Positions 1,707-59,294 of a stretch of 64,000 bases of DNA are shown here, piece after piece. Positions within the stretch are counted from its first letter, which is position 1. Each line of letters starts with the position of its first letter. The translations under genes were made by a program, and so were the position numbers. The notes under the pieces were generated by a model. That model saw only the letters and a list, made by a program, of their open reading frames with translations, was not told the origin of the DNA and searched no databases. Where the stretch lies: assembly GCA_001782235.1 (NCBI GenBank), contig MFOC01000007.1, positions 13,094-77,093 on the forward strand, written 5' to 3'. The DNA is from Candidatus Levybacteria bacterium RIFCSPHIGHO2_02_FULL_40_18. Its GTDB lineage: Bacteria > Patescibacteriota > Microgenomatia > Levybacterales > GWA1-39-11.

Positions 1707-2795
1707 ATGGTTTTAAAAAAACTTAAATTTATTAATTTCCGAAATCATCGTTTACGACAATTCGATTTTTCGCAAACCACAATAATCATTGGACCAAATA
1801 CGGTTGGCAAAACAAACATTCTTGAGGCAATATATATTTTGTCACGTGGAAAATCCTTCCGCGCAGAACATGACAAAGACACGATTCGTGAGGGGACAGA
1901 GTTTGCACAAATCGAGGCAGATATATTTTCTCACCCCCGAGGTGAAAAGAACCTCCACCTCGGGGGTGGACAAACAGAGGATCGAATAAAGCTTAAGGTT
2001 ATTTTTTCTCTTCAAAAAGGATACCTCTCGAAAAAATTCTTAGTTAATGGCGTAGCAAGAAGGCAATATGACTTTACCTCAAATTTTGTTTCGGTTCTCT
2101 TTACTCCCCATGATATCGAATTAATAACTTCCTCTCCTTCTTCCCGCCGCCGCTATATAGATTCGGTTTTGTACCAAGCGGATAAAAGATATCGGACCGC
2201 GCTTTCAACATATGAAAAAGCACTGAAGCGCCGAAACCGCATGCTATACGACATTAAAGAAGGAAGAAAGCAGTATAAAAGCTCTGATTTTGAGTACTTT
2301 AATAAAATATTGATCGAACAAGGATCGATGCTCGCATCAAAACGCGAAGAGCTCGTCAATTTTGTAAATGAATCGATCAAAAATATTTTTGACTTTACTC
2401 TTTTTTATGATAAGAGCGAGATGTCAGAAGCAAGACTTATGAAATATCATTTTGAAGAACAAAAAGCCGGAGTCACTCTAGTCGGCCCGCAGCGGGACGA
2501 CTTCAAATTTTATTTTCCTCGAACCGAAAAGCCCATCCAGGAATTCGGTTCCCGCGGAGAAGAAAGACTCACAATTTTCCAGCTTAAAGTTCTTGAAGTG
2601 AACTACCTGCTACGCGCCACCAGCCACACGCCCGTCTTACTTCTTGATGATATATTTTCCGAATTAGATGATACCAACATCCACAAGGTGTTCGATTTGT
2701 TGCCAGATCAGCAAACAATCCTCACAACCACCCACCGCGAATTCCTCCCCAAAAAAATCCTCAACAAACAGGACGTTTCGACGATTGAGCTCTAA
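1707..2795 (+). CDS. recF: DNA replication and repair protein RecF
   Basis: N-terminus MVLKKLKFINFRNH...IIIGPNTVGKTNILEAIY (Walker A) and an SMC-like signature region near the C-terminus. 362 aa is typical for RecF. Start moved to the ATG with a good SD rather than the longer upstream ORF (1635). Confidence 0.85.
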   Translation: MVLKKLKFINFRNHRLRQFDFSQTTIIIGPNTVGKTNILEAIYILSRGKSFRAEHDKDTIREGTEFAQIEADIFSHPRGEKNLHLGGGQTEDRIKLKVIFSLQKGYLSKKFLVNGVARRQYDFTSNFVSVLFTPHDIELITSSPSSRRRYIDSVLYQADKRYRTALSTYEKALKRRNRMLYDIKEGRKQYKSSDFEYFNKILIEQGSMLASKREELVNFVNESIKNIFDFTLFYDKSEMSEARLMKYHFEEQKAGVTLVGPQRDDFKFYFPRTEKPIQEFGSRGEERLTIFQLKVLEVNYLLRATSHTPVLLLDDIFSELDDTNIHKVFDLLPDQQTILTTTHREFLPKKILNKQDVSTIEL

Positions 2796-5313: not shown

Positions 5314-5428
5314 TAAAAAGGCCCCGCCTGGAGCCTACTTTACCCCACCATCGGCGGGGAAAGTGATTACACCATAAAATATCAAAAACTGTTGACAAAT
5401 GCAAGGGCATTCGACTAATATATAGTCC

Positions 5429-6205
5429 ATGCCAAAAGCCAAATCCCCCCTGCCGGGCCGGAGGCCCTCAGGGCCGGAGGCCTTAACGCTTGGGGATCTT
5501 CTGAAAAAGGTCACTCAAATAAAGGCAAATCAATTACTTTATATTGTTCTTCTAAATGCGGCGTTTCTTCTTGGGTATCTAACAGCTCGGGTTCAATTAC
5601 TTGAGAAAAATCAAGCCACAACTACTCCAAGTTCTCAAACGGCCGGGACTGCTCCTCCTGACAAGGTAGAGGTAAAAGAAGGAAAACTTCCTGTCGTTGG
5701 GCAAACCAACGCTCGCGTAACCATGATCGAATTTTCAGACTTTGAATGTCCTTTCTGTAAAAGATATTTTGACGAAACACTCTCTCAAATTAAAAAGGAC
5801 TACGTTGACACCGGAAAAGTGAAGCTTTACTATAGGCATTTCCCTCTTGACTTTCACCTTGCGGCGCTACCTTCTGCCCTCGCATCAGAATGTGCTAATG
5901 AGCAGGGAAAATTCTGGGAATATCATGATAAAATTTTCACCGAGCAGGATAAAATTTCAGGCAAAACCGCTGATGTAATCACTACACAGCTTAAAACTTG
6001 GGCAGAGGAGCAAGGACTGAACACCCAACAATTCAACAGCTGTCTTGATACGCAAAAGTATAAATCAAATGTAGATGCCGACTTAAATGATGGAAGAACT
6101 GCGGGAGTCTCAGGAACTCCAACCTTCTTTATAAACGGCAATAGATTAGTTGGCGCCCAACCCTACGCCTCCTTCAAAACCCTAATCGACGAAGAACTCA
6201 AATAG
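5429..6205 (+). CDS. DsbA-family thiol:disulfide oxidoreductase, membrane-anchored
   Basis: N-terminal TM helix followed by a thioredoxin-fold CPFC active site (FECPFCKRYF). The 5' coding region contains a GC-rich direct repeat, GGCCGGAGGCC twice. Confidence 0.75.
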   Translation: MPKAKSPLPGRRPSGPEALTLGDLLKKVTQIKANQLLYIVLLNAAFLLGYLTARVQLLEKNQATTTPSSQTAGTAPPDKVEVKEGKLPVVGQTNARVTMIEFSDFECPFCKRYFDETLSQIKKDYVDTGKVKLYYRHFPLDFHLAALPSALASECANEQGKFWEYHDKIFTEQDKISGKTADVITTQLKTWAEEQGLNTQQFNSCLDTQKYKSNVDADLNDGRTAGVSGTPTFFINGNRLVGAQPYASFKTLIDEELK

Positions 6206-8304: not shown

Positions 8305-9564
8305 TTACTTTAAGCCCTTAATAAAATCCAATATCTTTTTGTCAAACACATCACTTGAAAACTTTTGGGCCTGCTTGCGGCACGTCTCCGAGGAAATTTT
8401 TAATGACTCGAACTTTTTTATCGCATCGACCAGTGAATCTAAGGTGTATTCTCTAAAAAATAATCCGGTTTTTTCATCAATAACACTCTCTTTGTATCCC
8501 CCCCCATAATATGCAATGACTGGTGTTCCAGAGAGCATTGCTTCAACTGGCGTCATGCCAAAATCCTCATCCTCGGCAAGCGCTAAAAATGCTTTTGCAC
8601 CAGAATATAACTTTGCAAGTTCCTCATCCCTTACATGCCCCAAAAACTCTACGTTTTTTTCGGCTTTTTTTGAAAGAGATTTATATCCTGTGTAATACCC
8701 GGCAGGAAGTCCAACGATTTTTAGCTTGATTCCGAGTTTTGCCGCTGCCTCAACAGCCAAATCCAAACCCTTCGAACCGACAATTCGCCCCACTACTAAA
8801 TAGTAATCTCTTTTCACCCCCGAGGGGCGGACTGAAGCGCTAGCGAGGGAGCCCGCCTGCGAGCGGAGCGAGACAGGGGTGGAGAAAGCGGGGGTGGGCA
8901 ACGTCACTGGAGGATAAATTACCGTTGCATCTCGTCTGTAAAACTTTTGAATTCTTGCTTTTGTTTCCTCCGAATTAGCAATAAAGTAGTCCACTTTTTG
9001 TGCCATTTTAAAATCATAAAGCCGCAAGAAATGGCCAACAATCATTCCGTAAAGTTTAATTGGCCAATATCTTTGCCACTCAATTGAAGTCCGATAACCA
9101 TATAACCAGCGCGGCGGGGTGTGGCAGTAACATATCTCAATTGGCCCTTTCCCCCCCGAGGGGCGGACCGAAGCGTCAGCGAGGGAGCCCGCCTGCGAGC
9201 GGAGCGAGACAGGGGTGGAGAAAGCGGGGGTGGATTTGCGACTTCCGAAACCCTTAGTCACGTACCAAGATGCCGAACTTATGACCACGTCGTATTTTGA
9301 AAAATCGAAACTTGCCCAAATTAGTGGAGTTAGGAAACGCAAAGGGCTATGAAGCTTGTCGGCAAAAAAAGGAATGTAATGAACCCAAGAAGGAATAATT
9401 TTTGCACCTTTTAATCGCGCATAAGCGGTCGATCCTTCTTTGTAAAATGCCGTGTAAATAGGCGCATCGGGAAAAAGCTTGTGTAATTCCTCCACCACTC
9501 GCTCCGCCCCTCCGTATTCCTTTATATAATCATGGACTATAGCTACTTTGATGCTAGAACTCAT
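8305..9564 (-). CDS. Glycosyltransferase family 4 (retaining GT-B) carrying two in-frame GC-rich repeat insertions
   Basis: C-terminal EDFGMTPVEAMLSGTPVIA is an EX7E-like GT4 motif. The protein contains a duplicated segment TPAFSTPVSLRSQAGSLA(D/S)ASVRPSG, encoded by the two repeat copies. Confidence 0.75.
   Translation of the reverse strand: MSSSIKVAIVHDYIKEYGGAERVVEELHKLFPDAPIYTAFYKEGSTAYARLKGAKIIPSWVHYIPFFADKLHSPLRFLTPLIWASFDFSKYDVVISSASWYVTKGFGSRKSTPAFSTPVSLRSQAGSLADASVRPSGGKGPIEICYCHTPPRWLYGYRTSIEWQRYWPIKLYGMIVGHFLRLYDFKMAQKVDYFIANSEETKARIQKFYRRDATVIYPPVTLPTPAFSTPVSLRSQAGSLASASVRPSGVKRDYYLVVGRIVGSKGLDLAVEAAAKLGIKLKIVGLPAGYYTGYKSLSKKAEKNVEFLGHVRDEELAKLYSGAKAFLALAEDEDFGMTPVEAMLSGTPVIAYYGGGYKESVIDEKTGLFFREYTLDSLVDAIKKFESLKISSETCRKQAQKFSSDVFDKKILDFIKGLK
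8816..8898. repeat. ~83-bp GC-rich repeat element, copy 1, in frame inside the GT4 gene
   Basis: cccccgaggggcggactgaagcgctagcgagggagcccgcctgcgagcggagcgagacaggggtggagaaagcgggggtgg. About 70% GC in a ~40% GC background. Confidence 0.85.
9151..9232. repeat. ~83-bp GC-rich repeat element, copy 2, in frame inside the GT4 gene
   Basis: About 95% identical to copy 1 (cccccccgaggggcggaccgaagcgtcagcgagggagcccgcctgcgagcggagcgagacaggggtggagaaagcgggggtgg). Confidence 0.85.
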
Positions 9565-9594: not shown

Positions 9595-9996
9595 TTAAAA
9601 CTTTTTTTTACCTTTTAATGTTAAGACGCTCGAGGTAAGCATTTTACAGATCTGATCCAACTCCAACAAAAGTTCCTCACATTGAGGTTTCAATTCTACA
9701 TAAGAATCTCGAAGTAAAGATAACCAGTAGCGGGATTCGTTTCCTGATTTTAGAGATATTGTGTAGTAGTTAATAAAGTCTTTTCTTGAACTAGCTGACT
9801 TGGCTTCTATCAAATTTGCTCCTATCGAAGTTGATGATCTTAATAGTTGATCACCTATTGACCAAAAGGCCCGTTTGTTGGGTAGATTATTGACGAATTT
9901 TATTATTTCGATTGAAAAATCATAAGTTCTAACTCTTAAATCAGAAGATTTTGAGTTGTAGTTCTGAGTTTTGAGTTCTGAGTTTTGAGTTCTCAT
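9595..9996 (-). CDS. Four-helix-bundle protein (23S rRNA intervening-sequence protein family, TIGR02436-like)
   Basis: FDFSIEIIKFVNNLP…LLRSSTSIGANLIEAKSASSRKDFINYYTISLKSGNESRYWLSLL matches the family signature. The N-terminus carries an in-frame heptamer repeat. Confidence 0.7.
   Translation of the reverse strand: MRTQNSELKTQNYNSKSSDLRVRTYDFSIEIIKFVNNLPNKRAFWSIGDQLLRSSTSIGANLIEAKSASSRKDFINYYTISLKSGNESRYWLSLLRDSYVELKPQCEELLLELDQICKMLTSSVLTLKGKKKF
9949..9993. repeat. Tandem TCAGAAC/TCAAAAC-family repeat at the 5' end of the four-helix-bundle gene
   Basis: ttttgagttgtagttctgagttttgagttctgagttttgagttct. Confidence 0.75.
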
Positions 9997-11040: not shown

Positions 11041-12565
11041 CAGGAGGGAGAACTGAGGGTGCGGGGTAGATGTGTGTTCGTCATGAAGACGAGAATGTTG
11101 CTTGCGCAACCACACAGCTACCGCCGCACCTTTCCCGATTGAATCGGGACTCAGTCTGCGAAGACCTTCAAGCTTACGCAATCAGGCCTTTTCGCCTTGT
11201 TCAGGACGAACCTGAAGCGTTAACGAGGGCGCAAAGAGCCGCCGTCACGTGTTCAGGAAATTCGTCCCAGACGAAACCCCTAAGGGTCACTTCGTCCGTT
11301 AGCGACGTGCGAACTTTAGGGTCGCGACGCCGGCGAGGGCGAGGGCGAAGGCGAAGGCTATGGCACCAGCGATGCCAAACAGGACCGAGCTGTTGCCAGC
11401 GTCGGCCAGGCCAGCGTCACCGGCGAAAGCCGTGGACGTGTTCAGCGACAGCACCGAGATTGCTATCACGCTGATAAACGCCACAATCGCCAAAACCGGC
11501 CTGCTGAACGTAATCACCGACCTTCCGATGAAGGCGCTCATGCCGATGCCATGGAGTACTCTTCTCATGGTGTTGAGTCGTAGCAGTCGCAGTCGTCGCG
11601 ATGACGATGTCGGGTCGTGAGCTACGATGTAGAGTACGCCGATGGCGGCCAGTACGAGCAGGCTTGTTGCCAGGATGACGGCGGTGGTCGTTTCAGAGTC
11701 CATCAGGGCGACGACGGTGTTGCCGCCTGTTTTGACCACTGCCTGGTCGTACACGTCGCCTACTGCGATCGGGACCGCTTCTAGCGTGTCCGGGACCGAG
11801 TCAGTCGCCGCGTACATCGTTGTCGTGGCCGGTGGGTCGTGTCCGAGCTTCAGTCCGAAGAGACCGAAAGCTCCGAACGCTACGAGGAGAGCGGCGATAA
11901 GGCCGATCACCCCAAGCTTTCTGTCTTTCACGGCGGTTCCTCCTGTTGTCCTTCTTTGGAAGGATCTTGCCGGGTTTCTCTCTTGGCTTCGTCTCTGCCC
12001 CAGGGCACGTAGGTCCCCGATGGTTTCCCTAACGCGAGGTCTCTCCTTTTGTGCTCTGGCGGTCCCGTTACCCCCTCCTTTACCTTGAAAGGATGATTAT
12101 TGGAAGGCCCAAGATGCGGACGGCGGGGATCCCGCGCGGGGGTGTCCGTATCATTCGGCCGTAACTTTTGATGGAGACGCAGATTTCGCCCAGCCCCAGA
12201 CACTGCATTCCCGTGACAGAAGCAACGTACTCGAACTGCTCGTGCGTCTCCACCTCTCAAGACCAGCTTTTATTCGATAAACTTCTCCTTTCCAGACTAT
12301 CGTGCTTACCGATAAAATATGGTAATCTCCTGTGCCTTGCCGTCCTCGGCCGAGAATCGCAGCTACGAACAAGGCTCCAAGAGAATTATTGGCCATGGGG
12401 GGGCATACTGCTTTGTCGCATTTCGCGGGCGAGGAGATTTGCAACTTCGGCAGAAGTGTCCCCATGGGGAGGCCCACTGAGTTCGCAGCCGGAGGTGGGG
12501 CCTCCAAAAGGCGGAGCGAAAACTCCTTAGCGTGATGTAGCGGGCGGAAAGACTACGATAGCACG
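11041..12565. other. GC-rich island 1 (~55-60% GC, ~1.5 kb) lying in an intergenic position
   Basis: Abrupt composition shift relative to flanking ~40% GC sequence. Contains one plausible membrane-protein ORF with an AGGAGG SD and ~630 bp with no convincing ORF. Confidence 0.7.
11299..11931 (-). CDS. Hypothetical integral membrane protein encoded within GC-rich island 1
   Basis: GTG start preceded by AGGAGG at a 7-nt spacing. Several predicted TM helices (LIAALLVAFGAFGLFGL…, ILATSLLVLAAIGVLYIVA…, AIVAFISVIAISVL…). Confidence 0.4.
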   Translation of the reverse strand: MKDRKLGVIGLIAALLVAFGAFGLFGLKLGHDPPATTTMYAATDSVPDTLEAVPIAVGDVYDQAVVKTGGNTVVALMDSETTTAVILATSLLVLAAIGVLYIVAHDPTSSSRRLRLLRLNTMRRVLHGIGMSAFIGRSVITFSRPVLAIVAFISVIAISVLSLNTSTAFAGDAGLADAGNSSVLFGIAGAIAFAFALALAGVATLKFARR

Positions 12566-12633
12566 CGAGGAGTGTAAAGGCTTTTATTTTCTTCTTTCGA
12601 ATTGATATTCGACTGTGAACCCTATGTAGTAAC

Positions 12634-28295: not shown

Positions 28296-29168
28296 TTATA
28301 GTTCGAGGAGGTTAGTACTCTCGCCCTTTTTGGAGTCTTTGATATACTGCAGGTATCGCTCGGTTGAGGAAAGTCTTTTGTGTCCCAATACCTTTGACAG
28401 GAAAACCATAGAAATCCCATGTTTCAGATGGTGGGCGACAAAAGTATGCCTAAGATCATTTATCTTCGCACTCTCAATTCCTGCTCTCTTAAAATACCGC
28501 TCAATTGCGTCTCTAATATTTCTTACCAAGAAGGGCCTGCCGGTTTTTGTAACAAAAAAGTGGTCATTTGCGCTTTGAGGCCTTGCGGACAAATATCTTT
28601 TTAGCGCATCTTTTGCTCGTTTATTTAACGGTACTGTTCTTTGGGGGTGGCCTTCATAAGGCCGGACCGTAAGAACGCTATCTGAGACATCTTCCACCCT
28701 AATATTTGCTAGTTCTCCAATTCTAATGCCTGTTTGAAGCAGAACCTCGACAATCGCGTAAATTCTTGGATCTCCTGAGGCAGCATCTCTTAATGCCCTA
28801 TATTCAAGGGGGGACAAAATCCTGGGAGGATTTAACTCATATTTTGGATGTTTGACCAGAAGCGAGGGATCGTCTGTAATGTATTCACTGACCTTCAGGA
28901 ACCTATAGAAGGTTCTTGTAGAGTTAAGTTTTCTTGAAACAGACTTTGGTGTATATCCCCGGGACTCCATTGAGGCAAGAAAGGCCGCAATATCATCGCT
29001 TGTCACCTCATGAATGTGCTCACGTTTTAATTCCTCAAGAAATGATATAAGTTGGTCAATATCTTTACCGTATGCTAAGATAGTGGCAGAGGCCTTATTT
29101 TTGGACCTAAGAAAGCCCTCAAATTTTGCCTTTGCTTCTCTTATTTTTATGGGATTCATAAAATTCAA
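28296..29168 (-). CDS. Tyrosine site-specific recombinase (XerC/XerD / phage-integrase family)
   Basis: N-terminal SAM-like domain; C-terminal catalytic residues in conserved order (…GIRIGELANIR…, HTFVAHHL, LGHKRLSSTERYLQY). 290 aa. Confidence 0.8.
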   Translation of the reverse strand: MNFMNPIKIREAKAKFEGFLRSKNKASATILAYGKDIDQLISFLEELKREHIHEVTSDDIAAFLASMESRGYTPKSVSRKLNSTRTFYRFLKVSEYITDDPSLLVKHPKYELNPPRILSPLEYRALRDAASGDPRIYAIVEVLLQTGIRIGELANIRVEDVSDSVLTVRPYEGHPQRTVPLNKRAKDALKRYLSARPQSANDHFFVTKTGRPFLVRNIRDAIERYFKRAGIESAKINDLRHTFVAHHLKHGISMVFLSKVLGHKRLSSTERYLQYIKDSKKGESTNLLEL

Positions 29169-30357: not shown

Positions 30358-30436
30358 TTGTAACTCGAAAGTGGTATAATTTTTGAACGTAAAACGTGCG
30401 GGGTAGTGTAAAGCTGCACAGGAGGCTCATAATCTC

Positions 30437-32173
30437 CTAGACAAGGTGCGATTCCTTGCTCCGCAACACAGTAGGAATTGAGGCATACTTTTCTTCAAAT
30501 TGTGCCCGTAATTCAGCCTCTTTCTCAGGTGCGACCCTTTCCGCAATCACCGGAGATTCTTTTCTCATTCTTGCAATCGCTCCAATGTATTTTGGACTGT
30601 CAAATATAACCTTTTTATCCATAAGTGTTAGGTGCAACCCTAATCCCATAAAAATATCCCGTTTCACTTTAATATCCGGAAGGGCAAATCTCGCTCTAGC
30701 TCTTGCTACAAAATTGAAAGCGCTGGCAGTATCGTTATTGGATTGAATCATCTGCTCATCAAAGTTGCCGAGTTGCTTCTCAATAGCCTTTAATTCGCTC
30801 TCTAGTGCCTCTTTTTGCTCTTTGTATTGTTCGTCTGATAAAAGACTGCTATCAGCATTTGTTGGCGATATTTTAAGCTGTAAGAGGTTGTTCAGTTTTA
30901 TCCTGCAGGAATCGTGTGCCTTTTTAATACCTTTAACTGCTTCTTCCTCAAAATCCTTATTTGCTTCGTTCATTTTGCGAATTTGTTTTATTGCCCAATT
31001 CATAAAAAGAGGGGAAATTTCAACCTGTGAAAGCCTGTTGTCTATTTGTTCCTCAAGGTTATCTACTCTGACTGCGCGCTGTAAGCACGCAGAATTTTTC
31101 TTTCTTCCACACCTGTAATAAACATAGTGAAGTATTTTAGGATTATTCATGTTCTCAATAATTGTTCCACAATCCGTGCATTTATCCTTGTTCTTTTGGG
31201 TAAGGGAAAACTTTGTCTTACAGCTTGAGCAGATACATTGCCATTTTTGTTCAGCTACTATTCCTGAATTACAGAACCCGCAGCGCATAAGGGCATTGAA
31301 AGCATAATCATTATGTTTGAGCTTGTATTGACTCCTACCACCCAACTTCATTTGAATTTCATTAAAAACTTCCTCACTCACGGCTTTTTCATGGCCGCCT
31401 TCATACCATTTCCCACTCCCCAAGGGATATTCAAACTTTCCGCAGTAGAAGGGGTTAGTCAAAATAAAATATATCATAGATAGAGAAAGTGGCTTGCCGC
31501 CTATTCTCTTGTGTTGCCTAGTTTTAAAATGCCATTCTTCATCCGCGATTCTGTGAATTTCAATCGCAGGCGTCCCGGAATGAAATAGCTCAAAAATCTT
31601 TTTTACGTATGGCATACGCTCCGGGTCTGTGGGTATTTTCCTTAATCCGCTTTCGGTTGCTTTGTCATTCAAATATCCTTGTGGGGCTACTCCCGGTCTC
31701 CATCCGTTGCGCGCTTTTCCTTCCAAACCCCTACTTACGACGATACTTTTATCATCACTGTCTTTCTTAGACATTCCAAATTCAAGGGCTAACATAAATT
31801 TATCTTCCGGCGTGTTGCGATATGCACGAGAAGGGGTGCGGATTTCAATAAGTTTTCCTTCGTCCATTAGGTATAATAGTTGTCCTGCGTCAAGAGAGTT
31901 GCGGCATAGTCGGTTAGGATGCCATGTTAATATTGCATTTGCTTCACCTTTCTCTATTCTTTGAAGCATAAGGTTAAAAAGGGGTCTACCTGTCTTAAAA
32001 GCTGATTGGGATTCTTGTAAAACATCAACTACTGAAAGATTTTGTTTCGTTCGGACTCCCTCAATAATGTAAAGTTGGTCAGGTAAAGAGGCGGCTTGTC
32101 TCTCGCGGTTGTCTTCGGAAGATTTACGGGCGTAGCCTATATATTTCAATCTCAATTGTTCATTCATCTTCAT
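30437..32173 (-). CDS. Large serine recombinase (resolvase/invertase catalytic domain + recombinase domain + zinc ribbon)
   Basis: N-terminal YIGYARKSSEDNRERQAASLPDQ (catalytic Ser), recombinase domain, Cys-rich zinc ribbon (CGFCNSG…CSSC, CTDCG), and a C-terminal coiled coil. Confidence 0.85.
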   Translation of the reverse strand: MKMNEQLRLKYIGYARKSSEDNRERQAASLPDQLYIIEGVRTKQNLSVVDVLQESQSAFKTGRPLFNLMLQRIEKGEANAILTWHPNRLCRNSLDAGQLLYLMDEGKLIEIRTPSRAYRNTPEDKFMLALEFGMSKKDSDDKSIVVSRGLEGKARNGWRPGVAPQGYLNDKATESGLRKIPTDPERMPYVKKIFELFHSGTPAIEIHRIADEEWHFKTRQHKRIGGKPLSLSMIYFILTNPFYCGKFEYPLGSGKWYEGGHEKAVSEEVFNEIQMKLGGRSQYKLKHNDYAFNALMRCGFCNSGIVAEQKWQCICSSCKTKFSLTQKNKDKCTDCGTIIENMNNPKILHYVYYRCGRKKNSACLQRAVRVDNLEEQIDNRLSQVEISPLFMNWAIKQIRKMNEANKDFEEEAVKGIKKAHDSCRIKLNNLLQLKISPTNADSSLLSDEQYKEQKEALESELKAIEKQLGNFDEQMIQSNNDTASAFNFVARARARFALPDIKVKRDIFMGLGLHLTLMDKKVIFDSPKYIGAIARMRKESPVIAERVAPEKEAELRAQFEEKYASIPTVLRSKESHLV

Positions 32174-34407: not shown

Positions 34408-34728
34408 TTTATAAAATCAGCTTCAAAGTGGCTCAGAAAACTCGGGTCTTCACCTTTTAAATGGCTCCACAAACTCTACAAATCTCTTTTTAATGGCTCT
34501 AAAAACTCCAATTGACCAAGAATGCTATAATCAAGCTATAATTTGATTGCCTAAACTCACAGTAATGTGGGCATGGCACAAAAACCTTCGCAGAATTAAG
34601 CTCGTCGTCAGAGCATCTGCGAAGGTTGTCGCCCGAAAGGACGGCAGGTGGGGCAACCCATCGTTGGCGGCGAGCTTTGCTATTGTTCGCCTCCAACAAA
34701 ACCTAAACTGTCGAGGGAGGTGAAAAAT

Positions 34729-43929: not shown

Positions 43930-46581
43930 ATGTCATTAACTCTTGAAACCCGCGAAAAACAAAAACCAATAATTTTAATCTACGGCAATAACCCGTTGGT
44001 GCCGCTCTTGTTAGAAGAATATTCAAAAGAATTTAAAATCGCTTACGTTGGAGAGTTGGAGCAAACTGAAAAAAGAAAGGATTTTTACCGAATTCCGCGA
44101 GCAAACGTTCAATTTGTTAAAAATCTTGAAGAAAAAATAGATTACGCGGTGATTTTCCTGTCAAAAAAGGAAGATAAAAATCTAATCCCTTCTTTCATGG
44201 AAAAAATATCTAATGATGGAACCCGTACAGCGGTGATCATTAATGTCGAAAATTTAGAAGATTTTTATGATGTACTTCTTGAATATAAAAATATATCTCC
44301 CCTAAAGTTCCTGTTTTTAGGGGATGTTTATTCGGAAAACCCTTCTTTTAATATCGGGCATAAATTGTTTAAGATTATTCAGCAGGCAATTTCGGAAAAG
44401 TCTATAAGAATCTCTCAAGATTTTGAACCAATATTTGCAATCTATTATAGGGATGCGATATTGGGGATAAATCAAACACTTTTTGGGCCAAAAAAAACAG
44501 ACAAATTTTACTATCTTTTCTATTCGGAGCCCCAAAGCATTAACTCTCTGGCGTATATATTGCATCGGGTTGAGCCTGATCTTGAAATTCACTATCAAGA
44601 ATCCCTGCCTGCCGGCAGGCAGGAAAAAGATAATGATAAAGCAAAAACTCATAACGAATTGGCAAAAGAGATAAAGGGAAAAATTGTCATTGAGCCCATT
44701 TATCTTGACAAATATTTTATTGGGTTTGAAAAAAGCCTTGCCCCGCAGCATTTTGGTGCGGGGCAGGCCAATTTTTCGAAAGAGTCGATGCCGGGTAAGG
44801 CACACGAGGAGATAAGGGATAAAATTAGCAAACCACCTTTTAATTCTCTGGTTTTATCAGCGGCAATCGCCACTCTCCTCTTTATAGTCTTAAACATTGC
44901 CATGATTGGGCTGGGATTATTACAGTTAAATGCTTCCGCCCGATATTTTCGCGATGGAGACTACAAAAAGGCCTCCTCATATATCAAGACCGCATCTTCA
45001 CTTCTTAGCATTTCTTTACCGGTTGCAAAAGTTGGCGCAAAAATAGCGGGAAATAATTTCCCCCAACTTGAGGAATCGGTTGCCCTACTGAATATAGCAT
45101 CTGATAATTTTAACTCATTGGAAAAAGCATCACTTGGTCTTGATAGGGAAGTGCTGGACAAAACAATCTCAGACGGCACCTATTTTTATTTTAGATTTCT
45201 GGAGTTAAAAAATGAACTTAACAATGCAACTTTAAACACACTTGAGAGAGAGGGGCTGTCAAACACTATTGCTCTCTCACAAATGCTACCTGCTATTCTA
45301 GGCTACAACCAGGAGAAAAATTATCTCATTTTATTTCAGAATAACGGAGAGCTAAGACCAACCGGCGGATTTATCGGTTCTATTGGGGAACTGAAACTAG
45401 TGGGTGGAAAGATAGAGAGCCTAACCATTCAAGACGTTTACGAGTATGACGGGAAGCTTAAAGCTCATGTAGAACCTCACTACATAATACGGCGCTATCT
45501 TGCGCCGCACCTTTATCTTCGAGACTCAAATTTTGATCCTGACTTTCAAGCAAGCGCAAGCACATCAGCTCTGCTTTATAATCTCGAAACGGGAAAAGGG
45601 ATTGACGGTGTAATCGCGATAGACTTTGAAGCAGTTAAAAGATTAATTGGAAAGCTCGGGCCAATAGAACTTGCTTCTTACAAAAAAACGCTTGATGAGA
45701 AAAATACTTTTGATTTCTTGCAAACAACAATTGATGACAACTTTTTCCCGGGTTCCACACAAAAAAGGGATGTCTTGACTGCCCTTTTTAATCAACTACT
45801 CTTGAAGCTTGAGGACCGAAACTCCGCTATTTTGGCAGCAAATCTTTTGCCGCAAATAATGGAAGAGAAGCATTTGCTTTTTTCTTTTAGCAATTCTTCG
45901 ATCCAAAGCATTTTTAATACTCTTGGATATGGGGGGACATTTTCAGATAAAAGAGCTGTCGAAAAAAATAAAGTGAATGATTTCCTTTCGATTAATGAAG
46001 CAAATATTGGTGTTAACAAAGCAAATATAGGTGTGTCAAGGTCAACAAATTACGAAATAAGTTTTAACAAGAAGATAACATCAAGAGTTTCTCATGAGAT
46101 TAAAAACAATAGCGATAAAGGATATAAAACATATATAAGAGTCTTTGCTCCGGTTGGCTCAAAACTTTCCTCCATTACAATAAATGGCGATCAACAAAAG
46201 ATCATCCCGGCTGCCACGGACTTTAAAATATATGAGAAGGATAACTTTAAACCGCCGGCGGGGCTTGAAGTAGATCAAATTATTAACCATAATTTACAAG
46301 AATTTGGATTTATAGTAATAGTTGACCCAAAGAGCGCTAAAAAAATTGAAATATCTTATGACAATGGTCTTATTTTGCCAAATGAAGCTATAGTTACATA
46401 TTCTCTTGCTCTAATAAAACAGCCCGGAACAGAAAACTATCCCTTCAGTTTAAAGATTTCCTATGGCGAAAATTTTGTACCTAAAGAAGTCAAGAATGCG
46501 GAACTTTTGGAGGATTCAATCGTTTTTAAACGAGATATTAAACAAGACGAATTAATTGATGTAGAACTCATTAAGCGATAG
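43930..46581 (+). CDS. Large membrane-anchored protein: cytoplasmic N-terminal domain, one TM helix, large extracytoplasmic domain (possibly DUF4012-like)
   Basis: The TM helix LVLSAAIATLLFIVLNIAMIGLGLL begins ~aa 306. Conserved-looking NNGELRPTGGFIGSIGEL motif; 883 aa. Confidence 0.4.
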   Translation: MSLTLETREKQKPIILIYGNNPLVPLLLEEYSKEFKIAYVGELEQTEKRKDFYRIPRANVQFVKNLEEKIDYAVIFLSKKEDKNLIPSFMEKISNDGTRTAVIINVENLEDFYDVLLEYKNISPLKFLFLGDVYSENPSFNIGHKLFKIIQQAISEKSIRISQDFEPIFAIYYRDAILGINQTLFGPKKTDKFYYLFYSEPQSINSLAYILHRVEPDLEIHYQESLPAGRQEKDNDKAKTHNELAKEIKGKIVIEPIYLDKYFIGFEKSLAPQHFGAGQANFSKESMPGKAHEEIRDKISKPPFNSLVLSAAIATLLFIVLNIAMIGLGLLQLNASARYFRDGDYKKASSYIKTASSLLSISLPVAKVGAKIAGNNFPQLEESVALLNIASDNFNSLEKASLGLDREVLDKTISDGTYFYFRFLELKNELNNATLNTLEREGLSNTIALSQMLPAILGYNQEKNYLILFQNNGELRPTGGFIGSIGELKLVGGKIESLTIQDVYEYDGKLKAHVEPHYIIRRYLAPHLYLRDSNFDPDFQASASTSALLYNLETGKGIDGVIAIDFEAVKRLIGKLGPIELASYKKTLDEKNTFDFLQTTIDDNFFPGSTQKRDVLTALFNQLLLKLEDRNSAILAANLLPQIMEEKHLLFSFSNSSIQSIFNTLGYGGTFSDKRAVEKNKVNDFLSINEANIGVNKANIGVSRSTNYEISFNKKITSRVSHEIKNNSDKGYKTYIRVFAPVGSKLSSITINGDQQKIIPAATDFKIYEKDNFKPPAGLEVDQIINHNLQEFGFIVIVDPKSAKKIEISYDNGLILPNEAIVTYSLALIKQPGTENYPFSLKISYGENFVPKEVKNAELLEDSIVFKRDIKQDELIDVELIKR

Positions 46582-48708: not shown

Positions 48709-50943
48709 GTGTACCTACGGAAAATTCTCTCATTACTTAAATTTTGGAAAATAAATCCCGCACCAATTTGGTGCGGGATAAAAGGAAAGAGATACATTGT
48801 ATTGATTCTTGTGATTTTGGGTTTAATTGCAGCCTACTTCTATATCCTCAAGGACATCCCATCCACAGCAACAATTGGCTCAACCAGTTATCCACAATCA
48901 ACTAAGATTTATGATAGAAACGGAAAGCTTCTTTACACAATTTTTACCAGCCGAAACCAAACTTATGTACCGTTTAAACAAATCCCAAATTATGTCAAAA
49001 ACGCAACAATTGCTTTAGAGGATAAAGATTTTTATAAACATGGGGCAATAGACATTCGGGGCATAACAAGAGCATTTATCTCAACAGTTTTTAAGCGAGA
49101 AATACAAGGCGGATCTACAATAACACAACAGCTAGTTAAAACATCTCTTTTAACTCCCGAGAGAACCATATCAAGAAAAATAAAGGAAATTTTTCTGGCG
49201 TTTATTGTTGAGTCTGTTTATTCAAAAGATAAAATTCTTGAAATGTATCTTAATCAGGTACCTTACGGCGGTACGGCTTACGGAGTTGAGGCTGCAAGCC
49301 ATGTATATTTTGACAAACCCGTTGAAAAGCTAACCCTTGCCGAGTCCGCTTTCCTTGCAGCCCTCCCAGAAGCACCAAGCCTATATTCACCTTTTGGTTC
49401 AAGGCCCGAACTTGGAAAAACAAGACAACTTGAAGCCTTGCGAAAAATGCGGGAGCAGGGATATATAACGACTGAAGAAGGGAAGGTGGCGGCAAGCGAA
49501 GAACTTAAGTTCTCAAAAATTCAAAATAAAATCTTAGCGCCCCATTTTGTTTTTTATATCAAAGATCTCCTTGAGCAAAAATATGGTCCAAGGGCTGTTG
49601 AACAGGGAGGACTCCATGTAACAACTTCGCTTGATCTTGACTTACAAGCATATGCAGAGGCTACAGTTGCGGCGGAAATAGACGAGCTGAAAAGACTAAA
49701 CGTTTCAAATGGTGCTGCACTGATTTCCGATCCTAGGACCGGAGAAATTTTAGCGATGGTAGGAAGCCGCAATTATTTTGACGATAGAATTGACGGGAAT
49801 GTAAATGTAACATTAGCAAAAAGACAACCGGGGTCCTCAATAAAACCGATCAATTATGCTGTTGGGTTAATAAAAGGGTACACTGCCTCAACCCCTTTTG
49901 TTGATGACAGAATTTGCTTTCCTAATCCCGGCGGCCAGCCTCCATATTGTCCGGTGAATTATGACGGAAAATTTCACGGAGTACAACAAATGAGATTTGC
50001 GCTTGCTAATTCATATAACATTCCGGCTGTTAAAATGCTTAAAGCAAATACGGTTGAGGCAATGATCGCAACCGCATCCGCAATGGGAATCACAACGTTT
50101 CAGGATCCGGCACGGTATGGATTGTCCCTTACTTTAGGAGGAGGTGAAGTAACAATGCTTGAGATGACCGAGGCATTTGGCGTGTTTGCGAACAACGGAT
50201 ATAGAATCCCGTTGCGACCAATTCTTAAAGTTGTGGACAACAGAGGGCGCGTGCTTGAAGAGTACCAACCGCCAAAAAGCCCGATTTTTGGGAAAAAGGT
50301 TTTACCTGATGGGGTGGCATTTATAATATCTGACATATTATCAGATAATGGGGGGCGCTCTCAGGCGTTCGGAGCAAGCTCCACATTAAGAGTTGGAAAA
50401 TATCCTGTTGCTGTCAAGACCGGTACAACCAATGATCTTCGAGACAACTGGACAATTGGGTATACACCATCATATGTTGTTGCCACGTGGGTTGGCAACA
50501 ACAATAACATGCCAATGAGCGGATTGGTCTCAGGTGTAACAGGCGCTGCTCCTATCTGGCACGCCCTTATGGAAAAAGTACTTGAGAACACAGAGCCCCA
50601 GTCCTTTAAAAGGCCTGACAATGTTGTGGGGAAACATGTTTGTGCGGATACTGGTCAGGTCGCACCGCCCCAAGGCACAGAAGGCCGGTGTCCAACCAGA
50701 TTTGAATACTTTATTCGTGGAATGGAAAATAGCCAAGGAAAGATTGTTCGCGAAAAAGTACTCATAAATAAAGACACGGGGGATCTTGCAAAAGCGGGCG
50801 CGACCAATGTTGAAGAGCAGGAAAAAACAGTTATTATAGACTTAAATGGAGACCGCTACTGCGTTGACTGCCCCCATCCCGAGGCACCCCCTCCGGGGCA
50901 GAGCCCCTCCGGGGCGGCGCCAACCCCCACACCAGCACCATGA
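48709..50943 (+). CDS. Class A penicillin-binding protein (bifunctional transglycosylase/transpeptidase)
   Basis: GT51 motifs EDKDFYKHGAIDIRG and GGSTITQQLVK, a transpeptidase region, and a Pro-rich C-terminal tail. Confidence 0.85.
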   Translation: MYLRKILSLLKFWKINPAPIWCGIKGKRYIVLILVILGLIAAYFYILKDIPSTATIGSTSYPQSTKIYDRNGKLLYTIFTSRNQTYVPFKQIPNYVKNATIALEDKDFYKHGAIDIRGITRAFISTVFKREIQGGSTITQQLVKTSLLTPERTISRKIKEIFLAFIVESVYSKDKILEMYLNQVPYGGTAYGVEAASHVYFDKPVEKLTLAESAFLAALPEAPSLYSPFGSRPELGKTRQLEALRKMREQGYITTEEGKVAASEELKFSKIQNKILAPHFVFYIKDLLEQKYGPRAVEQGGLHVTTSLDLDLQAYAEATVAAEIDELKRLNVSNGAALISDPRTGEILAMVGSRNYFDDRIDGNVNVTLAKRQPGSSIKPINYAVGLIKGYTASTPFVDDRICFPNPGGQPPYCPVNYDGKFHGVQQMRFALANSYNIPAVKMLKANTVEAMIATASAMGITTFQDPARYGLSLTLGGGEVTMLEMTEAFGVFANNGYRIPLRPILKVVDNRGRVLEEYQPPKSPIFGKKVLPDGVAFIISDILSDNGGRSQAFGASSTLRVGKYPVAVKTGTTNDLRDNWTIGYTPSYVVATWVGNNNNMPMSGLVSGVTGAAPIWHALMEKVLENTEPQSFKRPDNVVGKHVCADTGQVAPPQGTEGRCPTRFEYFIRGMENSQGKIVREKVLINKDTGDLAKAGATNVEEQEKTVIIDLNGDRYCVDCPHPEAPPPGQSPSGAAPTPTPAP

Positions 50944-50954
50944 GTCCATAAGGC

Positions 50955-52226
50955 TTAAGACTTAAGTTTTGCGAAAGACAATCCTAAAACTAAGGCCAGC
51001 ATTATTTGGCCCTGCTCAAGGGTTAAGAAAAAGTGATCGAACATCCCGACAACTATTATCGATATTAATACGAACAGAGTACTCCTGTAAAAGGCTGTTG
51101 GCTGTTGGCTGTTGGCTGTTGGCTTATTAATAAGTGATCGAATTGCAAAGATAAACATTGCCGGAAAAATCCACCAACCAAATATTCCAAGTGAAAGAAA
51201 CGCTAAAACAAAAATATTATGAGGCGGCTGAAAAAGAATTGGAGATATATTCTTTATTAAATCAACCTGATGGACAAAAAAATTGTTAAGGCCTATTCCA
51301 AAATAAGGATTCCCCAAAAAAATTTGAAAGGACTGAATTAACAGGTCTTGTCTAAAATCTATACCCCTCAATAAAAATTGAGCACTTAATACATCAGGAA
51401 AAAAAATACTTACCAACCCTAACAGCCCCAACAGCCCTAAAACTATGAGCATAACATTGCGTTTTCCTTTCGTGTAAATTGCATAGAAGAAAAAACAAAT
51501 TGCTAAAAGAATTGTTATTCGAGAAAAAGTCAAAACTATACCCACAGTGGATAGCAAGATGCTTGATATTAAAACCCCTTTCACTGCCGAATTTTTTTCG
51601 TAAGGTAATCTAAAAACAGTGAACGCAGTGGTTGCAAGAAAGAAGAAAGCCAAAACATTTGGATGGGGGAAGGCAGCATACGGTCTTAAGACTAGATAGT
51701 CTAAATTAACTGTTGAAATTCCAATTGTTGAAATGTTAAAAGTTCGCTCTCCCAAAAAATACCAAAGACCGCCAATAGATGACTGTTTTATAAACTGCCA
51801 GATCGCAAGGACAGATGAAATAATTGCCGAAGTCGCAAGCATTATGACAAATGGTCGAATATAAATTCTGTCAAAAGTTTTTGCGATCAACAGCCCAAAA
51901 AGCCCGAATTCCACTAATTTTAGCATTCCAAACAGATGCACAGCGGGAGATTTAGATATAAATATGTTAAGAAGAATGCTGAGAAAAAAAAGCGCAAGTA
52001 GAGCGGCTGAAATTTTGTTAATCGCAAATTTAATCCTAAACAAAAGTTTAAAATTCAACAAAATAAATAAAATAATTAAAATATCAAGAAGATAGAGCGT
52101 CGGGGAAAGATAATCTATACGAATCCCATTGATGAATGAGAAAGCAGGCCAGAAATGAAGTCCCACTTGAGAAGAACTGAAGAAAACAATCAGAAAAAAT
52201 AAAATCTTGCGAACTTTATCTAGCAC
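50955..52226 (-). CDS. Polytopic membrane protein, O-antigen ligase/polymerase (Wzy_C)-like
   Basis: ~10 TM helices; contains an in-frame GGCTGTT-family repeat (KPTANSQQPTAF). Confidence 0.4.
   Translation of the reverse strand: MLDKVRKILFFLIVFFSSSQVGLHFWPAFSFINGIRIDYLSPTLYLLDILIILFILLNFKLLFRIKFAINKISAALLALFFLSILLNIFISKSPAVHLFGMLKLVEFGLFGLLIAKTFDRIYIRPFVIMLATSAIISSVLAIWQFIKQSSIGGLWYFLGERTFNISTIGISTVNLDYLVLRPYAAFPHPNVLAFFFLATTAFTVFRLPYEKNSAVKGVLISSILLSTVGIVLTFSRITILLAICFFFYAIYTKGKRNVMLIVLGLLGLLGLVSIFFPDVLSAQFLLRGIDFRQDLLIQSFQIFLGNPYFGIGLNNFFVHQVDLIKNISPILFQPPHNIFVLAFLSLGIFGWWIFPAMFIFAIRSLINKPTANSQQPTAFYRSTLFVLISIIVVGMFDHFFLTLEQGQIMLALVLGLSFAKLKS
51092..51126. repeat. GGCTGTT tandem repeat, in frame inside the membrane-protein gene
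   Basis: aggctgttggctgttggctgttggctgttggctta. Confidence 0.8.
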
Positions 52227-58928: not shown

Positions 58929-59294
58929 TCAAAACCCCGATATATTCTCAAGATGCTCAAGACTTTCTACCTTGTTACCGGGCGAAAGAATAATACCTAT
59001 TGCGTCTATTCGCATAAAATCTGGGAGATTAGGATGGAGTTGTTTGTAAAATTGCGCGAGACGTACAAGATGTTTTAATTTCCAAGGGGTAATTGATTCA
59101 AAAGGCGAGCCGAACGAATCAGATCTTCGAGTCTTGACTTCAACAAATACCAAAGTCGAATTTTTGATTGCAATAATATCTATTTCTTGATATTTCTTGC
59201 GAAAGTTTCGCTCAATAATCTTATAGCCTTTGCTCACCAAATACTCGCACGCCAAATCCTCCCCTATTTTTGCAATCGGATTGACTATTTTCAT
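58929..59294 (-). CDS. yraN: YraN family (UPF0102) endonuclease
   Basis: IGEDLACEYLVSKGYKIIERNFR…IDIIA…VFVEVKTR. Confidence 0.8.
   Translation of the reverse strand: MKIVNPIAKIGEDLACEYLVSKGYKIIERNFRKKYQEIDIIAIKNSTLVFVEVKTRRSDSFGSPFESITPWKLKHLVRLAQFYKQLHPNLPDFMRIDAIGIILSPGNKVESLEHLENISGF

Follow-up and report, generated by a model that had tools for sequence, protein, structure and literature searches.

Two GC-rich in-frame inserts in a glycosyltransferase gene of a Candidatus Levybacteria bacterium and their probable make-up from two small repeats

Results

Two in-frame inserts in a glycosyltransferase gene

We analysed a stretch of 64,000 nucleotides (nt), called the window below, from Candidatus Levybacteria bacterium RIFCSPHIGHO2_02_FULL_40_18 (assembly GCA_001782235.1, contig MFOC01000007.1, positions 13,094-77,093 of the forward strand). 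The source is a metagenome-assembled genome (MAG) of an uncultured groundwater bacterium of the GTDB lineage Bacteria; Patescibacteriota; Microgenomatia; Levybacterales; GWA1-39-11. The locus of interest is a gene for a GT4-family glycosyltransferase (GT), in which two near-identical GC-rich segments are set in frame. Its open reading frame (ORF) of 419 amino acids (aa) matched the Pfam families Glycos_transf_1 (2.7e-31), Glyco_trans_1_4 and Glyco_transf_4, and the product is recorded as a hypothetical protein of Candidatus Levybacteria MAGs (OGH17158.1 and others; 24 contigs of up to 405 kb). The gene order 5'-3' exonuclease, GT, Fpg and amino-acid kinase is kept at orthologous loci. With about 9 kb and about 6 kb beyond the ends of the window (L043, L044), the same-organism DNA that we surveyed amounts to about 80 kb, to which the Levybacteria copy numbers of two small repeats described below, a palindrome and a core, refer. 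The host gene and its inserts are as follows.

8305-9564, minus strand: GT4-family glycosyltransferase gene, 419 aa, the host gene (ORF and Pfam)
9151-9231, minus strand: putatively composite insert at site 1, residues 112-138, TPAFSTPVSLRSQAGSLADASVRPSGG, between WYVTKGFG and PIEICYCHTPPRW (repeat search, alignment and AlphaFold)
8815-8895, minus strand: putatively composite insert at site 2, residues 224-250, TPAFSTPVSLRSQAGSLASASVRPSGV, between VIYPPVTLP and KRDYYLVVGRIVG (repeat search, alignment and AlphaFold)

A repeat search detected the segments as direct repeats of 86 nt at 8812-8897 and 9148-9233, which are 95% identical and lie 336 nt, or 112 codons, apart from start to start. No third copy was found in the window by blastn, and a 40-nt piece of the repeat had only these two matches there, compared with 0 expected in shuffles. 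The net inserted unit is 81 nt (8815-8895 and 9151-9231), and both units are open in the GT reading frame over 27 codons each. They are identical at 77 of 81 positions, the differences lying at 8816, 8833, 8840 and 8841, and have GC contents of 72.8% and 75.3%, compared with 40.8% for the window and 41.2% for the remaining GT gene. The boundaries of the unit are the same at sites 1 and 2, and the adjoining native sequence is alike (YCC/AAARG, the slash marking the junction). These data agree with the initial annotation of the locus, which had described a pair of ~83-bp copies, ~95% identical and ~335 bp apart, with ~70% GC against ~40%, in frame in one GT4 ORF. The duplicated peptide given there is correct but for one residue, an S that is D in the upstream copy. 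If the inserts are translated, the tryptic peptides SQAGSLASASVRPSGVK and STPAFSTPVSLR would be expected.

The exact 419-aa protein was indexed in 38 blocks of the assembly collection, and 25 contigs carrying it were read, from JGI and ENA assemblies. At four fetched loci from independent assemblies, the DNA was 100% identical to the window across the region. Misassembly, a danger that the initial annotation had raised, is excluded as far as assemblies can show. We find it hardly credible that the pair is an assembly artefact or, alternatively, the template and variable repeats (TR/VR) of a diversity-generating retroelement (DGR). Although the neighbouring gene is of the 23S_rRNA_IVP/Avd-like family and a collapsed 307-aa form occurs in some assemblies, at least 25 contigs of the JGI, ENA and NCBI assemblies carry the full form without change, the four mismatches are not adenine-specific (A/C, T/C, CT/TC), and the window has no reverse transcriptase, its RVT_3 match coming only from an RNase H-like ORF.

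The 307-aa form (P0001, P0272 and P0273) lacks exactly the 112 codons that separate the repeats. In L042 it is seen as a precise repeat-to-repeat deletion, whose junction lies within the element and carries a private single-nucleotide polymorphism, the divergence from the window being 0.66% upstream of this junction and 0.015% downstream of it. A true recombinant would give this picture, and so would an assembly that was chimeric between strains and had collapsed the repeat; 86-nt direct repeats may promote deletion of the 112 codons between them.

We then compared the protein with its relatives. A search returned 7972 GT homologs, and the best 120 are mostly 363-385 aa long, compared with 419 aa here. 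In the alignment (A1), both inserts fall in gap columns (site 1, WYVTKGFG / PIEICYCHTPPRW; site 2, VIYPPVxLP / DYYLVVGRIVG), and both sites are highly variable in length among GT orthologs. Judged from the alignment to syntenic orthologs, the two segments are insertions and not native GT sequence, as the initial annotation had held. AlphaFold2 run on A1 gave a mean predicted local distance difference test score (pLDDT) of 76.9 with a confident GT-B core, and the two longest low-confidence coil segments (pLDDT<50), residues 111-137 and 226-248, coincide with the inserts. Because of this match, the inserts are predicted to sit in disordered loops, with the GT-B fold predicted to be intact around them. 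An intein, likewise discounted in the initial annotation, was rejected, since the inserts have 27 aa compared with at least ~130 aa for an intein, start with TP and end with SGV or SGG, contain no splicing motifs and gave no Pfam intein match.

In more distant GT orthologs, these two loops likewise hold inserts, which form hairpins or are GC-rich and are unrelated to those of the window. At L038 5756-7195 (P0068) and L040 4057-5304 (P0035), for instance, the peptides at sites 1 and 2 include HPELVSGS, KQVRND and PVIPAKAGIQ and are encoded by hairpins such as GGGAATCCAgaagaaaacgTGGATTCCC and ATGCCGAAacaagTTCGGCAT. These inserts appear to be members of widespread palindromic repeat families that are translated in frame.

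A small palindrome at the same sites in relatives

The closest GT ortholog with DNA is that of L041 (P0002; 74% BLASTP identity; syntenic). Its site 1 (5321-5357) holds an intact copy of a small palindrome, here called PE, with the sequence CACCCCCGAGGTG-aacgaacttcc-CACCTCGGGGGTG, which starts at the same codon as the site-1 insert of the window and is read as AAA TCC ACC CCC GAG GTG AAC GAA CTT CCC ACC TCG GGG GTG. PE is a 37-nt perfect palindrome, CACCCCCGAGGTG-N11-CACCTCGGGGGTG, with a 13-bp stem and an 11-nt loop. The window unit retains CACCCCCG at one end and CCCCTCGGGGGTG at the other, with an interior that differs from the PE of L041. Both GT copies have the right-arm variant CCCCTCGGGGGTG, compared with CACCTCGGGGGTG in L041, and because both carry this variant and both abut YCC/AAARG, a single origin of the two copies fits. 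P0003, a close relative known as protein only, has TPEVGAAFPSGV at site 2, which is PE by back-translation and has 'AF' and 'PSGV' in common with the window peptide TPAF...RPSGV. The PE features of the window are as follows.

8815-8825: PE arm remnant CACCCCCGAGG (plus strand), with the other copy at 9151-9161 (one mismatch), by comparison with the PE of L041
8889-8896: remnant of the partner arm, CGGGGGTG, with the other copy at 9225-9232, by the same comparison
1932-1968: intact PE encoding HPRGEKNLHLGG, in frame inside recF (1707-2795, plus strand)

The gene at 1707-2795 was identified as recF by PDB matches. Its PE is read in a frame different from that of the GT PE, and the encoded residues are missing from the RecF orthologs P0122-P0124 (48-58% identity), while the closest RecF relative (77% identity) has a different odd peptide at this spot. 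Among the 271 proteins retrieved, PE-encoded peptides were found only in P0002 and P0003. Because of the recF copy and of this restricted occurrence, we regard PE as a dispersed, intragenic palindrome of a narrow clade, with one intact copy and two remnants in the DNA surveyed. Sequence comparison places PE in frame in what would be loops of housekeeping proteins, namely in RecF, at GT site 1 (L041) and, by its peptide, at GT site 2 (P0003).

P0003 itself (361 aa; run SRR3989304) is 100% identical to the window GT over its first 83 residues and ~75% identical thereafter. This break in identity points to recombination in the allele or to a chimera of two related strains in the assembly.

A core repeat with a conserved hairpin

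The interior of the unit recurs in copies that have no PE arms (L043 15349-15427, L044 3207-3268, L019 and L036), and the boundaries of the repeat, here called the core, were set by comparison with these copies. The core features of the GT gene are as follows.

9160-9218, minus strand: site-1 copy of the core, subfamily A, ~59 nt (bounds from the arm-free core copies)
8824-8882, minus strand: site-2 copy of the core, subfamily A, ~59 nt (bounds from the arm-free core copies)
8856-8877: conserved core hairpin, stem CCTG/CAGG and 14-nt loop CGAGCGGAGCGAGA, with the other copy at 9192-9213 (alignments A2 and A4)

The GT copies, L019 and L036 share, without a single difference, the 30-nt block that lies at 8854-8883 in the window (TCCACCCCTGTCTCGCTCCGCTCGCAGGCG in GT sense); L019 and L036 are true core homologs in low-GC contigs (44% and 42% GC, respectively) of other genomes. 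Two diverged copies lie outside the window in the same organism. One, in L043 (E=8e-8, and 1e-11 with the refined profile), supplies the C-terminal tail and the stop codon of a 121-aa ORF, and the other, in L044 (E=4e-11), lies near the 5' end of rpiB. Both belong to a second subfamily, B (CGGCTGCGAGCGGTAGCGAGACAGCGGTGGG vs CGCCTGCGAGCGGAGCGAGACAGGGGTGGA). The core thus has at least four copies in two subfamilies in the Levybacteria DNA and at least two in other low-GC genomes. The further copies in genome and metagenome that the initial annotation had foreseen were found for the core (L019, L036, L043 and L044); for the 81-nt unit, neither the same-organism DNA nor any collection scanned held a third copy.

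On this evidence, the 81-nt unit is probably a composite, in which a ~59-nt core is nested between the arm remnants of a separate 37-nt PE, and in the GT gene the core lies between these putative remnants exactly where relatives carry PE. The initial annotation had proposed a single small mobile or palindromic element. PE and the core are both dispersed, as that proposal implies, but they appear to be two elements, one nested in the other. Its idea of foreign selfish DNA lying in frame in the GT gene is borne out, and parts of the unit recur in other genes and genomes.

The inverted ends of the unit, CACCCCCG...CGGGGGTG (7-8 nt), are the PE arm remnants, and the core copies elsewhere have no inverted ends. 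When the unit was folded as RNA, neither strand did better than shuffles (z = +0.2 to +0.8). Since the inverted ends derive from PE and the fold is no better than chance, the unit cannot be called palindromic, contrary to the first description. We also looked for target-site duplications, but none of the junctions (GT sites 1 and 2, recF and L041) has direct repeats. With no such duplication and no partner transposase in the window, the classical hallmarks of the transposable elements of the miniature inverted-repeat type (MITEs), to which the initial annotation had compared the unit, are lacking. A related reading, in which the unit is a single MITE-like element that was transposed twice into the GT gene by a trans-acting enzyme recognising CACCCCCG...CGGGGGTG, seems unlikely to us. 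The identical boundaries and the similar targets speak for it, and the ends are the same as those of the dispersed PE of recF and of the L041 GT gene, so that one machinery could move both. However, besides the missing duplications, the absence of a transposase from the 64 kb and the absence of a third composite from the surveyed DNA and the collections scanned, the bare PE at the same two codon positions in relatives would be an odd coincidence under de novo insertion.

Across the core family, the hairpin has a stem of 4-7 bp and a loop of 14-15 nt, CGAGCGG(T)AGCGAGA. The four inner pairs are intact in 7/7 sequences; one pair is changed from C-G to G-C in subfamily B and another pair is changed to U-A in L015. 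The covariation score was attained by 3 of 500 shuffles, which gives the hairpin modest support. The core alone did not fold better than shuffled sequence, DNA folds included.

In L015 (10904-10941, in a metagenome contig of 48% GC), the 14-nt loop and the inner stem of the core are part of CCCAGGTGTGCCTG[CGAGCGGAGCGAGA]CAGGCACCCTGGG, a perfect hairpin that is longer and has other hairpins around it. This is either a distant relative of the core hairpin or a chance match of 23 nt.

The segments might also be functional, either as protein loops under selection or, within the mRNA, as a regulatory element or structured RNA (small intron, riboswitch, ribozyme or bypass element). The identity of the 30-nt block across three genomes, the compensatory change in the hairpin and the frame kept in both copies are points in favour of such a role. 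Against it, no Rfam match was obtained at E<=10 in 8700-9350, L019, L015 or L043 15200-15560, folding was no better than shuffles, and the core is read in different frames and orientations in GT, rpiB and the ORF tail. In addition, orthologs that lack the segments are functional, and disorder is predicted for the loops. We therefore judge a functional role very improbable.

Partial gene-end duplicates beside the core

Three of the four core loci outside the GT gene share a layout in which a partial gene-end duplicate of 32-34 nt is followed by the core, a spacer of 17-23 nt and the intact gene. In L019, a 32-nt duplicate of the tRNA-Gly(GCC) 3' part has its T-arm split by the core and is located 23 nt downstream of the intact tRNA. 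In L036, the duplicate has 34 nt, copies the 5' half of tRNA-Thr(GGT) and lies 17 nt upstream of the intact tRNA-Thr; the core, here in the opposite orientation, is found in its D-arm region, and this fragment also holds the palindrome CCTGCCTGCCGGCAGGCAGG. The tRNA pieces in both are copies of the neighbouring tRNA genes and not part of the element, and a tRNA-like nature of the element itself was rejected, as ARAGORN and Rfam were negative. In L044, the called ORF reads MKIYIGSDHRG, then the core with an 18-nt spacer, then MRIFIGADHRGFKLK, and its homology to solved RpiB structures begins at residue 36-38. Because the homology begins there, the locus is best read as a diverged 33-nt duplicate of the first 11 codons of rpiB, the core, the spacer and the intact start, all in frame. 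The duplicate is 70% identical to the original, and its first ATG overlaps the stop codon of the upstream gene. Neither the GT copies nor L043 has a gene-end duplicate. Between the core ends and their targets, apparent short homologies consisting of G/C runs, and of GGTGGA against the D-loop, were read by eye.

In the same rpiB gene (L044 2694-3299), a further segment of ~15 aa at residues ~92-107, SVEIKNANASAQRAL, is not present in solved RpiB structures and may be another insertion.

No tested explanation accounts fully for this layout. Integrative elements leave att-site scars at tRNA genes, in which an intact gene stands beside a short duplicate of its own end, and partial gene-end duplicates beside tRNA genes are classic traces of integration. 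The duplicates at L019, L036 and L044 resemble such scars, but the core lies inside or against the duplicate and not between two att repeats, the duplicates have only 17-23 nt and the core between or within them, a protein-coding gene is the target at its 5' end in one case, and the GT copies have no duplicate.

Candidate mobilising enzymes and database searches

We searched the window for enzymes that might move the core. Among its 59 ORFs, none belongs to a transposase family. A tyrosine recombinase is encoded at 28299-29168 and a large serine recombinase (Resolvase and Recombinase domains) at 30440-32173; the serine recombinase gene overlaps the end of a tRNA-Met gene (30397-30467), with the tyrosine recombinase 1.3 kb away. 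A link of the core to the recombinase junctions (window and L002) or to a GC-rich island at 11-12.6 kb was rejected, the only similarity being a sub-significant one of 18 nt.

Both recombinases lie within a cluster of six tRNA genes at 25.5-30.5 kb, a probable integrated-element region. The island (~11050-12600) has 48-58% GC and contains a 210-aa Ala/Gly/Val-rich hydrophobic ORF (11299-11931) with no Pfam match. L002 1-1266, from the same population, diverges from the window at 11711 and carries an AT-rich ORF for a large serine recombinase, fused in frame to the C-terminal part of the 210-aa ORF, which looks like a strain-variable integration junction.

These data bear on a further reading, in which the core is a conserved end or recombinase-binding hairpin, or a miniature derivative, of site-specific integrative elements that target gene termini and bring along a substitute for the gene end they displace, with the GT copies as secondary captures. 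The duplicates of tRNA-Gly (32 nt), tRNA-Thr (34 nt) and rpiB (33 nt) would be explained in this way at three of four non-GT loci, and the genome does have large serine and tyrosine recombinases by tRNA genes, together with a strain-variable serine-recombinase junction. We nevertheless consider this reading rather improbable, since the core sits inside or against the duplicate, no integrase or recombinase is adjacent at L019, L036 or L044 (two of these contigs are short), the core is unlike the recombinase junctions of the window or L002, and the GT and ORF-tail copies lack a gene-end duplicate.

The searches of sequence collections gave few further copies. A 23-mer scan of the genome contig collection had 0 matches, and a second scan of genome contigs had one real and one chance match. 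A 20-mer scan of metagenome contigs gave 30 loci, of which 28 were chance matches, mostly to one conserved gene of soil bacteria with 67-72% GC. Two viral scans gave one chance match and none, respectively, and phage and plasmid searches gave none. In the searchable literature, we found no description of intragenic palindromes or MITEs in the Candidate Phyla Radiation (CPR) or Patescibacteria; the genetic-code paper of Shulgina & Eddy, checked for in-frame GC-rich inserts, proved irrelevant.

Other GC-rich hairpins and neighbouring genes

The window as a whole contains 12 GC-rich hairpins with stems of at least 9 bp, most of them within long ORFs, compared with 0-3 in locally shuffled controls. 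In the gene for phosphoglycerate kinase (PGK; 59291-60421, minus strand), the palindrome CCGGCCCAGAGggcCTCTGGCCCGG at 59809-59833 adds 11 aa (LPGQRPSGPAA) in frame immediately ahead of the conserved motif RPLAVLIGGAK, and this segment is not present in PDB 1vpe.

Further hairpins lie at 44602-44625 and 44739-44765 in an 883-aa DUF4012 ORF (43930-46581) and at 48755-48779 in a penicillin-binding protein (PBP) ORF (48709-50943). The palindrome at 44602-44625, CCCTGCCTGccggCAGGCAGG, encodes the peptide SLPAGRQE and is the same as that in the pseudo-tRNA-Thr of L036. Because both organisms carry this palindrome as well as the core, at least two small repeat families are common to the L036 organism and this Levybacteria bacterium. 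Two regions, 50839-50962 and 5420-5512, are very GC-rich (up to 82%) and contain short tandem or palindromic units (CCCCTCCGGGGC x2; GGCCGGAGGCC x2); the former encodes the C-terminal tail of the PBP (PHPEAPPPGQSPSGAAPTPTPAP), and the latter is intergenic. A LOOT RNA (RF03000) was found at 34548-34662 and scored 87 bits, the gathering score being 46.4.

Directly upstream of the GT gene and in the same orientation, a 23S_rRNA_IVP/Avd-like four-helix-bundle gene is encoded at 9595-9996 (minus strand), with a perfect 14-nt tandem duplication (AGTTCTGAGTTTTG x2) at its 5' end (9960-9987). The orthologous loci L038-L041 have no such gene between the exonuclease and the GT gene, and we take the gene for this reason as an insertion in this lineage.

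Discussion

We favour, with moderate confidence, the reading that the 81-nt unit is nested, non-autonomous selfish DNA translated in permissive loops, similar in behaviour to the Rickettsia palindromic elements (RPEs), and that it arose by PE insertion, core insertion and copying, in that order. First, both GT loops would have been occupied by PE. Then, the core may have entered one PE hairpin via short homology at G/C runs. Gene conversion over short homology, or replication template switching, between the palindromes would finally have placed a copy of the composite in the other PE, at a distance of 336 nt. The inserts may persist since the loops tolerate them, and not from any need of the protein, and the conserved hairpin of the core is probably the recognition target of a candidate trans-acting enzyme or process. 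This history, with PE first and one copying event, is the most economical, because relatives bear bare PE at one or the other site and the surveyed DNA holds no third composite. Two separate insertions, as the initial annotation had assumed, are less likely than the copying of one composite between two pre-existing PE, since relatives carry PE at both positions; short-homology copying from one PE-occupied loop to the other is the probable origin of the second GT copy.

Several points weigh against this reading. The PE-first order draws on one ortholog with DNA (L041) and one relative seen as protein (P0003), and independent reinsertion at hot spots would give the same picture. The surviving PE arms are just 7-11 nt long, and part of their match could be the core's own G-run end. 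The PE of recF has no core, so that the core does not obligatorily target PE, and the covariation of the core hairpin amounts to two or three events. No mobilising enzyme was found, and no sequence link joins the core to the tyrosine or serine recombinase of the window. The genome and metagenome collections that were scanned do not include this genome, and the copy numbers come from about 80 kb. Finally, a search for the insert peptide in 5.8 billion proteins, in all open frames, returned only the GT or its fragments, with a sensitivity that is doubtful, as the first search missed the GT itself.

Among known systems, RPEs come closest to the favoured reading of translated, nested selfish DNA. 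Their first description is that of Ogata et al. 2000 (summarised in PMC10969869); they fall into ten families, number dozens of copies in a genome, and are ~100-150 bp long and palindromic throughout (PMC10969869). Both groups consist of short non-autonomous repeats that lie in unrelated housekeeping genes, in frame, translated and at positions compatible with the fold, and both also occur outside ORFs and near RNA genes. Such placement was found here at GT sites 1 and 2, in recF and in the N-terminal region of rpiB, and, for another palindrome, in PGK. The differences are that PE has 37 nt and the core ~59 nt, that the core is non-palindromic save for one hairpin, and that the GT unit is a nested composite; full-length palindromy fails for the unit, and only PE is a perfect palindrome. 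The Levybacteria elements are moreover GC-rich in an AT-rich CPR genome, and, with a copy number taken from the ~80 kb, they are likened to RPEs by behaviour and not by sequence.

MITEs that form in-frame fusions (Coxiella QMITE1/2, PMC5896051; intragenic ERIC and BOX, PMC10969869) are likewise small and non-autonomous, with inverted ends and sometimes with overlap or extension of ORFs. They can give C-terminal tails and stop codons, as the core does for the 121-aa ORF of L043. However, MITEs usually have terminal inverted repeats matching a parent insertion sequence (IS) and target-site duplications of 2-11 nt, neither of which was found here, and the core is accompanied instead, at three loci, by a 32-34-nt partial duplicate of a gene end. 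REP-RAYT systems are extragenic by definition, carry GTAG/CGTC tags and are associated with a RAYT gene (PMC3733652). Short GC-rich hairpins in many copies, and a second element inside the hairpin of the first, are features that REPs and BIMEs have in common with our repeats. Insertion sequences of the IS1397/ISKpn1 type, for example, enter palindrome loops. PE differs in being intragenic and untagged, with arms that start CACC, and its nested partner is a ~59-nt non-coding repeat and not an IS; membership of the REP/RAYT group was rejected, since the PE copies are intragenic and the window has no Y1 transposase or RAYT-like gene. In yeast mitochondria, GC clusters and byp elements are short GC-rich mobile inserts in AT-rich coding sequence, sometimes in frame, and byp is skipped by the ribosome. 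The likeness lies in the GC-rich inserts within AT-rich coding sequence, whereas the Levybacteria inserts are open in frame and belong to a different domain of life and genetic system.

It is also conceivable, if quite doubtful, that the core is a previously undescribed CPR miniature mobile element, characterised by its conserved hairpin, by targets that form hairpins or have G/C runs (tRNA T- and D-arms, small palindromes and gene termini), and by a duplication of ~32-34 nt of the target gene end that spares essential genes. We know of no transposase that gives this signature, which has more in common with long-stagger integrase chemistry or with template switching during replication.

Gene-resident, translated selfish repeats have so far been seen largely as a peculiarity of Rickettsia, and here they are found in a CPR bacterium with a small, gene-dense genome. 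The present case adds that two GT loops have been struck independently by different hairpin elements in many lineages, that elements are nested in one another within a gene, and that a core with a hairpin stands repeatedly beside gene-end duplicates. As regards annotation, insertions and not native sequence are often what lies behind GC-rich micro-islands and odd low-complexity peptides of CPR proteins; as regards assembly quality, direct repeats within genes can lead to gene models that are collapsed or carry a deletion, of which the 307-aa form is an example. Most deserving of further work is the gene-end-duplication signature of the core, which, if it reflects insertion chemistry, would point to an unknown mobilisation mechanism. 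Altogether, small hairpin elements have come to rest time and again in permissive loops of conserved proteins in this lineage, and such elements would be a source of new surface loops in protein evolution.

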